Shown here in pieces: positions 41,948-47,985 of a DNA stretch of 64,000 nucleotides. The stretch is from NCBI RefSeq assembly GCF_003334765.1, contig NZ_QOWT01000013.1. The stretch is one strand, 5' to 3'. Numbering within the stretch: the stretch's first letter is position 1; each line of letters opens with the position of its first letter. The DNA comes from Escherichia coli. GTDB lineage: Bacteria > Pseudomonadota > Gammaproteobacteria > Enterobacterales > Enterobacteriaceae. The position numbers and the translations under genes were made by a program. The notes under the pieces were generated by a model. It ran no database searches. It saw nothing but the letters and a program-made list of their open reading frames with translations, and was not told the origin of the DNA.

Positions 41948-42565
41948 TCACACCTCCTTCGGGTTTGCCAGATAGCCAGTGGTATCCCCGGTCGGGCGGC
42001 TATTGGCATTGGGTTTGATCACAATATTCGGTTTGGTAAAGTGAGCTCGCGGCAACGGCGCAACGGCCGCCAGATCGCCATGTTTTTTACGCAGCTCGTC
42101 GATAGGGCCGAAATCCAGCGCCCGCAGCGGACAAGATTCAACACAGATCGGCTTTTTACCCTCCGCAACACGGTCATAACAACCATCGCATTTGGTCATA
42201 TGGCCTTTCGTTTCGTTATATTGCGGTGCGCCATACGGGCAAGCCATATGGCAGTAGCGGCAGCCAATGCACACATCTTCATCGACCACAACAAAACCAT
42301 CTTCACGTTTATGCATCGCACCGCTCGGGCAGACTTTAGTACAAGCCGGATCTTCGCAGTGGTTACATGAAATCGACAGATAGTAGGCAAACACGTTCTG
42401 GTGCCAGACACCGTTATCTTCCTGCCAGTCGCCGCCAGCATATTCATAAATGCGGCGGAAGCTGACTTCTGGCGTCAAATCTTTGTAGTCTTTACAGGCC
42501 AGCTCGCAGGTTTTGCAACCGGTGCAACGGCTGGAATCAATAAAAAATCCATACTGGGTTGTCAT
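41948..42565 (-). CDS. dmsB: DMSO reductase iron-sulfur subunit
   Basis: 205-aa ORF with four Cys clusters (CxxCxxCxxxC). Confidence 0.96.
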   Translation of the reverse strand: MTTQYGFFIDSSRCTGCKTCELACKDYKDLTPEVSFRRIYEYAGGDWQEDNGVWHQNVFAYYLSISCNHCEDPACTKVCPSGAMHKREDGFVVVDEDVCIGCRYCHMACPYGAPQYNETKGHMTKCDGCYDRVAEGKKPICVESCPLRALDFGPIDELRKKHGDLAAVAPLPRAHFTKPNIVIKPNANSRPTGDTTGYLANPKEV

Positions 42566-42575
42566 CGGTTACTCC

Positions 42576-45020
42576 TTACACCTTTTCAACCTGAACAAGG
42601 TTTGTATGTGACGGATTCCCCTTAGCGAGAGGAGACGGACGTTGAGTGGTCAGTACGTTAATACAACCACCCTTATCGACACGTTTTGCATCCGGGTCAT
42701 ACCAGGCACCTTCACCCAGTGCGACCACACCCGGCATCATTCGTGGCGTCACTTTCGCCTCAATATGAACCTCACCACGATCGTTAAAGATCCTGACTTT
42801 ATCGCCGTTGTGGATACCGCGTTTTTGGGCATCAAGCGGGTTGATCCACATTTCCTGACGGCAAGCCGCTTTCAGCACATCAACGTTGCCGTAAGTTGAG
42901 TGAACGCGAGATTTATAGTGGAAACCTGTAAGCTGCAGCGGATACTGTTTGTTCAGCGGATCCTGATAACTTTCAAAGCCCGGCGTGTAGATCGGCAGTG
43001 GATCGATCACATCGCCTTCAGGCAATTCCCAGGTAGCGGCAATGTCAGCCAGCGCCTGCGAATAAATCTCAATTTTGCCCGATGGCGTAGTCAGTGGGTT
43101 TGCCTGCGGATCTTCACGGAAGGCTTTATAAGCAACGTGATGCCCTTGTGGGTCGCGCTTTTTAAAGATCCCCTGCTTGCGGAACTCTTCAAACGTTGGC
43201 AGTTCAGGAATCGCTTCCCGCGACTGGGCATACAGATGCCGCATCCACTCTTCCTGGGTACGGCCTTCAGTAAACTGTTGCTCAACGCCAAGACGTTTTG
43301 CCAGTTCGCTGGTCATTTCATAGATGGTCTTACATTCAAAGCGCGGTTTAATCACCTGATCGTTGAAAATCACGTAAGACATATTCCCGCAGGATGCATC
43401 CAGCGCAAAGTCCATCTGTTCGGAAGCGGTGCAGTCAGGCAGCAGGATGTCAGCATATTTCGCCGATGAGGTCATGTGGCAGTCGATAACCACAATCAGC
43501 TCGCACTTCTTATCATCCTGAAGGATTTCATGGGTACGGTTGATTTCAGAATGCTGGTTAATCAGGCAGTTACCGGCATAGTTCCAGATCATTTTGATCG
43601 GCACATCCAGCTTATCTTTCCCGCGTACACCATCACGCAGCGCCGTCATTTCCGGGCCACGTTCAATGGCATCGGTCCACATAAACATCGAAATGCTGGT
43701 CTGGATCGGGTTTTCCAAGGTCGGCATACGGACAAACGGTAAGCTGTATGAACCTTCACGCGCGCCGCTGTTGCCTCCGTTAATACCAACGTTACCGGTC
43801 AGAATCGCCAGCATCGAGATAGCACGGGTTGCGATTTCACCGTTAGCGTGACGCTGCGGGCCCCATCCCTGGCTGATAAACGCCGGTTTGGTACTACCGA
43901 TTTCACGAGCCAATTTGATGATTTTGTCTGCCGGAACACCAGTGATTTGCGAGGCCCATTCCGGCGTTTTAGCCACGCCATCTGGCCCTTCACCCAGAAT
44001 ATAAGCTTTATAGTGGCCATTTTTCGGCGCACTGGCTGGCAGGGTTTTCTCATCGTAGCCAACGCAATATTTATCGAGGAATGCCTGATCCACCAGGTTT
44101 TCAGTGATCATGACGTACGCCAGACCGTTAACCAGTGCGGCATCTGTTCCCGGACGAATAGGGATCCACTCATCTTCGCGCCCGGCACCGGTGTCGGTAT
44201 AGCGCGGATCGATGATGATCATGCGGGCATTAGATTTCTGGCGTGCCTGTTCAAGATAGTAAGTCACCCCACCGCCACTCATTCGCGTTTCGCCAGGGTT
44301 ATTACCAAACAGCACTACCAGCTTACTGTTTTCGATATCCGACGGGCTGTTGCCATCTGCCCAGCCGCCGTAGGTATAGTTCAAACCTTCCGCAATTTGC
44401 GCGGAGGAGTAGTCGCCGTAATGGTTCAGATAGCCGCCGCAGCAGTTCATCAGCCGCGCGACCAGGGTATTTCCCGGCGGCCAGGAGCGGGTCATGGTGC
44501 CGCCCAGCGTACCGGTGCCATAGTTCAGATAGATAGACTCGTTGCCGTACTCTTTGATCAGGCGCTGCATATTGGTCGCGATGATGTCGTAGGCTTCTTC
44601 CCAGCTAATGCGCTCGAATTTGCCTTCACCGCGCGCCCCGACTCGTTTCATCGGATATTTCAGGCGGTCCGGATTGTAGACACGGCGACGCATGGAACGC
44701 CCACGCAGGCAGGCGCGAACCTGGTGCAGGCCGTCGTAATTGTCATCGCCGGTATTGTCCGTTTCGACATATTTGATTTCACCGTCCACGACGTGCATAC
44801 GTAGCGGGCAGCGACTACCACAGTTAACTGTACAGGCGCTCCAGATAACCTTTTCGTCTGATTTTGTTGGAATGGCGCTATCGACAGCGTGCGCAATCCG
44901 ACTAAAAGGTAATGTTAATGCGCTGCTGGCCATTGCCAGGCCGCCGATCGCTGTCGTTTTTACCAAACCACGGCGACTCACCTCAGCAGCCAATACCGCA
45001 TCAGGGATTTTCGTTTTCAT
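42576..45020 (-). CDS. dmsA: DMSO reductase molybdopterin catalytic subunit
   Basis: 814-aa ORF with Tat signal (SRRGLVKTTAIGG). Confidence 0.96.
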   Translation of the reverse strand: MKTKIPDAVLAAEVSRRGLVKTTAIGGLAMASSALTLPFSRIAHAVDSAIPTKSDEKVIWSACTVNCGSRCPLRMHVVDGEIKYVETDNTGDDNYDGLHQVRACLRGRSMRRRVYNPDRLKYPMKRVGARGEGKFERISWEEAYDIIATNMQRLIKEYGNESIYLNYGTGTLGGTMTRSWPPGNTLVARLMNCCGGYLNHYGDYSSAQIAEGLNYTYGGWADGNSPSDIENSKLVVLFGNNPGETRMSGGGVTYYLEQARQKSNARMIIIDPRYTDTGAGREDEWIPIRPGTDAALVNGLAYVMITENLVDQAFLDKYCVGYDEKTLPASAPKNGHYKAYILGEGPDGVAKTPEWASQITGVPADKIIKLAREIGSTKPAFISQGWGPQRHANGEIATRAISMLAILTGNVGINGGNSGAREGSYSLPFVRMPTLENPIQTSISMFMWTDAIERGPEMTALRDGVRGKDKLDVPIKMIWNYAGNCLINQHSEINRTHEILQDDKKCELIVVIDCHMTSSAKYADILLPDCTASEQMDFALDASCGNMSYVIFNDQVIKPRFECKTIYEMTSELAKRLGVEQQFTEGRTQEEWMRHLYAQSREAIPELPTFEEFRKQGIFKKRDPQGHHVAYKAFREDPQANPLTTPSGKIEIYSQALADIAATWELPEGDVIDPLPIYTPGFESYQDPLNKQYPLQLTGFHYKSRVHSTYGNVDVLKAACRQEMWINPLDAQKRGIHNGDKVRIFNDRGEVHIEAKVTPRMMPGVVALGEGAWYDPDAKRVDKGGCINVLTTQRPSPLAKGNPSHTNLVQVEKV

Positions 45021-45180
45021 AATGGCTCACTCAAGCTTGCTCACGATTGATTCCAGTAACAAACCGTATTGTGTAATTATTTCTATAGCAGTTCGCTATA
45101 TAGGCTTGTATACATCGAATAATTTGAAAATCAAAGAGATAGGTAGATTTTCACTCGAAAGTAGTATTACGTGTAAGTGA

Positions 45181-45194
45181 GGAGTAATTATTGT
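45181..45194. promoter_or_regulatory. FNR binding site of the dmsA promoter
   Basis: ttgttcggtatcaa is the reverse complement of TTGATaccgAACAA, the FNR site I recall for dmsA; a second FNR-like TTGAaaaTCAA lies at 45124..45134. Confidence 0.5.
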
Positions 45195-45210
45195 TCGGTA
45201 TCAAAGGGAG

Positions 45211-45234
45211 ACAAAAAAAGCGCCCGCAGGCGCT
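45211..45234 (-). terminator. Rho-independent terminator downstream of serS
   Basis: Hairpin agcgcc-tgcg-ggcgct flanked by A7 on plus strand (T7 on minus). Confidence 0.7.
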
Positions 45235-45258
45235 TTTTAGATTCAGAAAAATTGGGTA

Positions 45259-46572
<1,314 letters not shown>

Positions 46573-46641
46573 TTAAATGGGAGATGTGGCCACAGCCTGC
46601 GACCACAGGGATACAGTAACAACATTACCGCAACGATAACA

Positions 46642-47985
46642 TTAACGGTAGCGTTTTATGGGGCTATTTTGATCCTGTTCAGCCAGCCAGGCGAGCTTTT
46701 CGCCAATCTTGCCTTCAAGGCCCCTGTTTGTCGGGAAATAATAGCGTGTTTGTGCTATTTCCGGCGGGAAGTAAACCTCACCGGCAGCATAAGCGTTTGC
46801 TTCATCATGAGCGTAACGATATTCCTGCCCGTAGCCCATTTCCTTCATTAATTTCGTCGGCGCATTACGCAAATGAACCGGCACGTCATAATCCGGGCGT
46901 TCGCGAGCATCGGCCAGCGCGGCTTTAAACGCAGTGTAGACAGCGTTGCTTTTTGGCGCGCAGGCCAGGTAAACAATCGCCTGAGCAATGGCGCGTTCAC
47001 CTTCCGCCGGGCCAACGCGAGTAAAGCAATCCCAGGCCGCAATTGCCACCTGCATCGCCCGTGGATCGGCATTACCGACGTCTTCAGACGCAATCGCCAG
47101 ACAGCGACGCGCGACATATAACGGATCGCCACCAGCGGTAATAATTCGCGCATACCAGTACAGCGCCGCATCGGGTGCGCTACCACGTACCGACTTATGC
47201 AGTGCGGAAATCAGATCGTAAAAGCGATCGCCTTTGTTATCAAAGCGGGCGCTACGTTCACCGGCGATTTCGGTCAGTAATTCAGGCTTCAGGACCCGCT
47301 TACCGCTATCATCGACTTCGGCCATATCCGCCATCATTTCCAGCGTATTTAACGCCCGGCGCGCGTCGCCATTCACCAGTTCAGCAATGGCGCGTCGTGT
47401 TTCATCTGGCAGAACAATATCCTGACCACCATAGCCACGGGTTTTGTCTTCCATCGCCTGAGTTAGTACTTGCTCAATATCCTCTGTACTCAGGGATTTC
47501 AACAGATAGACACGGGCACGGGAAAGCAGTGCCGAATTAAGCTCAAACGACGGGTTTTCAGTGGTTGCGCCAATAAAAGTGATGGTGCCGTCTTCAATAT
47601 GTGGCAGAAATGCATCCTGCTGGCTTTTGTTGAAACGGTGAACTTCGTCAACAAAAAGAATAGTGCGGCGACCTGCATTGCGGTTTTGCCGGGCGCGCTC
47701 GATCGCCTCGCGAATCTCTTTCATGCCAGAGGTGACGGCAGAAATACGTTCCACATCAGCGTTCGCATAGCGGGCAATCACTTCAGCGAGAGTTGTTTTG
47801 CCGGTACCCGGCGGCCCCCAGAGGATCATAGAATGTAAATGCCCGGCTTCGATAGCGCGCGGCAACGGCTTCCCCGCAGCCAGCAAATGTTGCTGGCCGA
47901 TATACTGTGCTAAATTTTCTGGCCGCATACGCGCGGCCAGAGGTTGAAAAGTATTATCCGAAAAATCGAGCGACAGATTGCTCAC
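46642..47985 (-). CDS. rarA: replication-associated recombination protein A (AAA+ ATPase)
   Basis: 447-aa ORF; Walker [10 protein letters not shown]. Confidence 0.95.

Follow-up and report, generated by a model that had tools for sequence, protein, structure and literature searches.

The serS and dmsA genes lie next to each other on the minus strand of the window (the whole 64,000-nucleotide stretch of Escherichia coli DNA analysed here), with serS (430 aa) at 45259..46551 and dmsA (814 aa) at 42576..45020 in the open reading frame listing, and the gap between them is 238 bp, exactly 45021-45258. The segment from 41979 to 46979 of the window is, base for base, the reverse complement of MG1655 NC_000913.3 939000-944000, in which serS is annotated at 939428-940720 and dmsA at 940959-943403, such that a coordinate in NC_000913.3 equals 985979 minus the window coordinate. 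The coordinates of Myers et al. 2013 refer to U00096.2, and the offset to NC_000913.3 in this region is 777, as obtained from the position of dmsA in the table of Kim 2012 (940182..942626) relative to 940959..943403. There is no plausible small open reading frame on the dmsA strand within 45021-45258.

The arrangement is widely shared, both within the species and beyond it. A 501-bp query placed around the gap has matches in all 5426 of the complete E. coli genomes, with at least 99% identity in 5049 of them. A scan of one genome per species recovered 80 dmsA loci from the Enterobacteriaceae, 78 of which were usable, and serS is directly upstream of dmsA in 77 of these 78. The alignment used below contains 75 of the Enterobacteriaceae serS-dmsA loci together with the window, and thus 76 sequences; outside of the conserved elements, the remainder of the serS-dmsA gap has a mean identity to the reference of 41%. 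The features that we recognise, in window coordinates and from the serS side to the dmsA side, are as follows.

45259..45261, minus strand: serS stop codon TAA (open reading frame listing and the MG1655 serS annotation).
45111..45245, plus strand, opposite to dmsA: match to Rfam RF02084, STnc130, a putative Salmonella sRNA.
45213..45238, minus strand: serS intrinsic terminator (fold and conservation).
45217..45236, no strand assigned: 20-bp core AAAGCGCCTGCGGGCGCTTT, which is a P2-family (Peduoviridae) attachment site in other strains (prophage junctions).
45191..45204, minus strand: FNR binding site TTGATaccgAACAA (consensus match, conservation and published ChIP).
45135..45186, minus strand: matches to the NarL heptamer, the consensus of which is TACYYMT (pattern scan), namely the four that follow.
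45186-45180, minus strand: NarL match TACTCCT, at -30..-24.
45166-45160, minus strand: NarL match TACTACT, at -10..-4.
45145-45139, minus strand: NarL match TACCTAT, at +12..+18.
45141-45135, minus strand: NarL match TATCTCT, at +16..+22.
45163..45168, minus strand: -10 hexamer AATACT of dmsA P1 (conservation).
45155..45156, minus strand: predicted dmsA P1 start (based on the -41.5 site position in the literature together with the conserved hexamer).
45094..45117, minus strand: ModE-operator-like palindrome CGATGTATACAAGCCTATATAGCG in the dmsA leader, at +40..+63.
45032-45026 and 45020-45018, minus strand: Shine-Dalgarno-like GAGTGAG and the dmsA ATG (sequence); the G/A positions at 45026-45031 are at least 95% conserved.

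The serS terminator begins 20 nt past the serS TAA and reads AAAAAGCGCC-UGCG-GGCGCUUUUUUU on the dmsA strand. Its arms, AAAAAGCGCC (45238-45229) and GGCGCUUUUU (45224-45215), form a 10-bp stem of five G-C and five A-U pairs closed by a UGCG loop, and its parts can be described as an A5 tract, a GC stem (GCGCC/GGCGC, 45233-45229 / 45224-45220) and a U7 tract at 45219-45213. The predicted folding energy is -16.3 kcal/mol (z = -3.9), and none of 200 shuffled sequences folds equally well. There is thus a GC-rich, stable hairpin followed by a U tract and located 3' of a stop codon, and its GC-rich stem, tetraloop and U7 tract, 20 nt after the stop, are the same as those of known Rho-independent terminators. 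A scan with a consensus terminator pattern gave no match at this position, which we regard as an artefact and discount, as the fold shows the hairpin clearly; the scan missed it because its greedy stem extends through the five A-U pairs, after which no more than 4 T remain for the tail window. Among the entries listed for serS in the 3'-end tables of Adams et al. 2021, the ends are internal only and none is at 940,75x-940,78x.

The terminator is conserved throughout the alignment. The arms with their flanking A and T tracts (AAAGCGCC / GGCGCTTTTTT) are identical in 76/76 of the Enterobacteriaceae sequences and the loop is variable; the T-run is 6–9 nt long in all 76, and in 59 of the 76 the A-run upstream reaches 5 nt or more. 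Because the stem is invariant and shows no compensatory changes, conservation alone cannot tell constraint at the RNA level from constraint at the DNA level. When read on the plus strand, the hairpin is preceded by A7 and followed by U5, so that the upstream A tract gives a mirror-image U5 on the opposite strand, as in bidirectional terminators. The serS terminator therefore appears symmetric enough to terminate transcription in both directions, with the reverse function being predicted from its sequence.

The FNR site reads TTGATACCGAACAA on the dmsA strand (45204..45191), and departs from the consensus TTGAT-N4-ATCAA at a single one of the ten positions. It is an imperfect palindrome in which four of the five arm positions are complementary, and it is the only site with fewer than three mismatches to the FNR consensus in 44800-45500. 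Its centre lies between 45198 and 45197, which corresponds to 940,004.5 in U00096.2. The half-sites TTGA and CAA are invariant in 76/76 sequences, and the spacer is variable; we note that among Escherichia lineages the 4-bp spacer occurs as ACCG, ATCA and ACCA with the half-sites unchanged. A full-text literature search with the sequence of the FNR site gave no relevant match.

The -10 hexamer is similarly well conserved, with the A at -11, the A at -9 and the T at -7 present in 76/76 sequences, the T at -10 in 75/76, and the C at -8 in 72/76. The distance from the start of the FNR site to the start of AATACT is exactly 36 nt in every one of the 76 sequences, and because it is fixed, the FNR site and the -10 hexamer constitute one rigid module. 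Placing the FNR centre at -41.5 puts +1 at G45156 (NC_000913.3 940,823; U00096.2 940,046), 7 nt downstream of AATACT, and gives a leader of 136 nt; from these positions we infer the exact base of the P1 start and the borders of the FNR footprint. A second promoter-like match, TTGTCT-16-AATAAT at 45214..45187 on the minus strand, was rejected, as it occurs at chance frequency (one found, 1.1 expected) and misfits the conserved -10 hexamer. We note that it is the only match to a sigma-70-like consensus in 44800-45500, and that it overlaps both the U tract and the FNR site; its start would precede that of P1 by about 24 nt, and we found no evidence for its use.

Published genome-scale data place FNR and RNA polymerase at these positions. 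Myers et al. 2013 (PMC3688515) list dmsABC in Table 1 as directly activated by FNR through one FNR site at -41.5, with a ChIP-seq peak for FNR at 940,035 in that table and at 939,992 in Table S5; the centre of the FNR site described here is 30.5 bp from the former and 12.5 bp from the latter. In the same study, the sigma-70 peak at 940,050 has a signal of 448 under anaerobic conditions compared with 31 under aerobic ones, the aerobic/anaerobic expression ratio of dmsABC is 0.018, and the operon is scored as 'Activated' by FNR; we find that the anaerobic sigma-70 peak (U00096.2) is 4 bp from the predicted P1 start. Melville & Gunsalus 1996 is cited there as earlier in vitro evidence for FNR binding, and Federowicz 2014 reports an Fnr ChIP region at 939,760-940,277 that is classed as 'Activation, Known'. 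A passage of Bearson et al. 2002 describes the dmsA promoter as favouring sites at -41.5, as other class II Fnr promoters do. Our first-pass annotation, which was made without database searches, had taken the palindrome for the dmsA FNR site, and this identification is well supported by the nine of ten consensus positions, by the half-sites and spacing that are kept throughout the alignment, and by ChIP peaks 12–30 bp away; as far as could be compared, the motif does not lie outside the mapped FNR site, given the published position of -41.5 and these same peaks.

The start-site table of Kim 2012, which is aerobic, contains no dmsA P1 start; this absence fits an anaerobic promoter and does not amount to positive mapping. 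The same table assigns to dmsA three starts of 2–3 reads each that lie inside serS, at about 45494-45567 of the window (U00096.2 939,635-939,708), and these are probably noise or processing products.

A comparison with other promoters is informative. At narG, nirB, nrfA and ydfZ (Myers 2013, Table 1) an FNR dimer sits at -41.5, replaces the -35 element and acts with sigma-70, as it does at dmsA. The dmsA promoter differs from these four in that NarL represses rather than co-activates it, and in that its upstream edge abuts the terminator of the preceding gene and not a longer regulatory region. With respect to dmsAp1 of E. coli K-12, a class II promoter that is FNR-activated, NarL-repressed and ModE-dependent, the locus is the same, the sequence is identical, and we find no difference.

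Two further sets of elements lie within and downstream of the core promoter. The NarL heptamers listed above extend from -30 to +22, and a part of the published work on NarL states that NarL protects a large region of dmsA that includes the FNR and RNA polymerase sites. The ModE-operator-like palindrome CGATGTATACAAGCCTATATAGCG matches the palindrome of the modA operator, CGTTATATTGTCGCCTACATAACG, at 16 of 24 positions, and 30 of 2000 shuffled sequences do as well; the T/A and CG positions in its core are maintained between species. ModE is reported to control dmsA (PMC12096835, citing McNicholas 1998), and on the basis of its sequence this palindrome is the predicted ModE site of dmsA. We note that its position downstream of the start would be unusual for the site of an activator.

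The terminator and the promoter are close neighbours. The FNR motif begins at 45204, separated by 8 nt from the last U of the terminator (45213), and it was therefore correct to describe the FNR site as immediately next to the serS terminator. Among the species in the alignment, however, anything from 7 to 11 nt separates the U tract of the hairpin from the FNR site, in contrast to the fixed distance between the FNR site and the -10 hexamer. From the alignment, the terminator thus appears to be a neighbouring module with some slack in its distance to the FNR site. The first-pass annotation had further proposed that termination of serS and activation of dmsABC share a short interval; the juxtaposition stands, but with a gap that varies, termination and activation are not shown to be physically coupled in any strict way.

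We consider it very likely that the interval is the serS-dmsA region as it is known from K-12, in which the intrinsic terminator of serS and the class II FNR promoter dmsAp1 are adjacent and act separately. The elements, their conservation and their spacing are from the analysis reported here, and the literature supplies the in vivo binding of FNR, the induction under anaerobic conditions, the placement of the promoter in class II and the control by NarL and ModE. The serS transcript would end at the Rho-independent terminator. Under anoxia, a [4Fe-4S] FNR dimer would bind TTGATaccgAACAA at -41.5, overlapping the place of a -35 element, and recruit RNA polymerase with sigma-70 to AATACT, such that transcription would begin at about 45156 and produce the 136-nt leader. 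NarL bound to the heptamers that overlap the core promoter would account for repression by nitrate, and the ModE-type palindrome in the leader may provide control by molybdate. The C-terminal domain of the alpha subunit may be positioned on the T tract of the terminator, at -57 to -63.

Several other explanations for the conserved sequences deserve consideration. There are 3 FNR-like sites with no more than one mismatch in the 64-kb window compared with 2.69 expected, and 48 of 100 shuffled sequences do as well; for the given 238-bp interval the chance expectation of such a site is about 0.01. The motif by itself is thus not above chance, and what supports it is its conservation, the constant distance to the -10 hexamer and the in vivo binding data in the literature. 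While the count in the window is what would be seen if the palindrome were a chance match of no function, that explanation is extremely unlikely, as it would have to accommodate half-sites that are invariant and a -10 spacing that is fixed in 76/76 sequences, together with published ChIP peaks on the site and a strong, FNR-dependent anaerobic induction.

A different explanation concerns the opposite strand, where an STnc130 sRNA transcribed from about 45111 would run antisense to the promoter and the early part of the leader of dmsA, would end at the serS hairpin acting as a bidirectional terminator, and would explain the conservation wholly or in part. The RF02084 match is full length and scores 140.1 bits, far over the gathering threshold of 55, with an E-value of about 1e-25, and the plus-strand features of the hairpin described above, including the A-run of at least 5 nt in 59/76 species, are those that such a terminator would need; moreover, the predicted 5′ end falls inside the ModE-like palindrome, which contains a TATATA that might act as a -10 element. 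Nevertheless, in the study of Sittka et al. 2008 in Salmonella, STnc130 is in class V (predicted earlier only); neither of the two cDNA libraries contained a read of it, and Northern blotting with probe JVO-2445 is recorded as 'nd', with no detectable transcript; a later paper still terms it a 'putative sRNA'. The RF02084 model contains almost no structure beyond the terminator, and of the 35 columns in the STnc130 span with a conservation of 95% or more, 33 belong to one of four elements, namely the terminator, the FNR half-sites, the -10 hexamer and the ModE palindrome; a promoter scan found no promoter-like site on the plus strand in 44800-45500. Because the conserved columns of RF02084 coincide with the elements of the dmsA promoter, the match is probably not an RNA gene, and we regard a genuine sRNA here as very unlikely.

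The hairpin has an additional association in other strains. In E. coli MS10860 a P2-family prophage is located between serS and dmsA, and a copy of the 20-bp sequence AAAGCGCCTGCGGGCGCTTT lies at each end of it (L082 20386-20405 and L083 about 1199-1218), whereas the window carries the sequence once; the copy on the dmsA side follows the end of the integrase gene by about 80 nt. The sequence is therefore duplicated at both junctions and single in the empty site with an integrase adjacent, as is expected of an attB. As at P2-family attachment sites, a segment of identity, here of 20 bp, occurs at both prophage ends, with an integrase gene adjacent to one junction; the core here is the hairpin of an mRNA terminator, as opposed to the 3′ end of a tRNA or tmRNA. 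The junction of integrase, hairpin and dmsA occurs in 343 of the 5426 complete E. coli genomes (about 6%), and in the type strain of E. albertii the homology to the window begins exactly at the hairpin (L003 about 1286-1305), with an integrase gene before it. In MS10860, the core copy on the serS side is followed by TTTAAG and not by T7, whereas T7 and the complete promoter are retained next to the copy on the dmsA side. Integrase matches in a phage collection were considered as independent attP sequences and rejected, as they are prophage-derived records that still carry dmsA. We found no description of a serS-dmsA attachment site in a limited literature search.

These observations bear on the reason why the hairpin is invariant. 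In class II promoters the C-terminal domain of the alpha subunit sits around -57..-63, and dmsA reportedly depends on activating region 1 of FNR (the title claim of Lamberg & Kiley 2000, cited by Myers et al. 2013). The T tract of the terminator occupies the same -57..-63 interval, and the hairpin and T tract could have been held constant mainly through a role at the DNA level, either as the docking place of the alpha C-terminal domain or as a recombination target, and not through serS termination alone. The identity of AAAGCGCC and GGCGCTTTTTT in 76/76 sequences with no compensatory changes, next to bases that are only about 41% conserved, is in keeping with this, as is the use of the same 20 bp as the P2-family attachment core. 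The 7–11 nt variation in the gap between T tract and FNR site argues against a phase-critical contact, however, and purifying selection would already be accounted for by a strong terminator that separates an essential, highly expressed gene from a promoter under tight control by oxygen; a predominantly DNA-level explanation is thus unlikely, while deserving of some weight. A more elaborate proposal is that the invariant 20–24-bp hairpin is a multi-use element that would serve as the serS terminator, as the stop for antisense STnc130 transcription from the ModE operator, as the T tract for the alpha C-terminal domain and as the P2-family attachment core, and in its boldest version ModE would 'activate' dmsA from +40..+63 by silencing an antisense promoter. 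We consider this quite improbable, and favor the explanation of a serS terminator and an FNR-dependent dmsA promoter that are adjacent and separate.

That the serS terminator stands beside the dmsAp1 FNR promoter is already known, and dmsAp1 is a textbook, reference class II FNR promoter to which genome-scale studies of FNR have turned for proof of principle; the call of the FNR site and the terminator from sequence alone was accurate to the base. As for the STnc130 family in Rfam, it probably just mirrors, on the other strand, a conserved promoter and a symmetric terminator. Finally, the serS terminator hairpin doubles as an attachment core for P2-family prophages, and it is the serS-side copy that loses the U tract.
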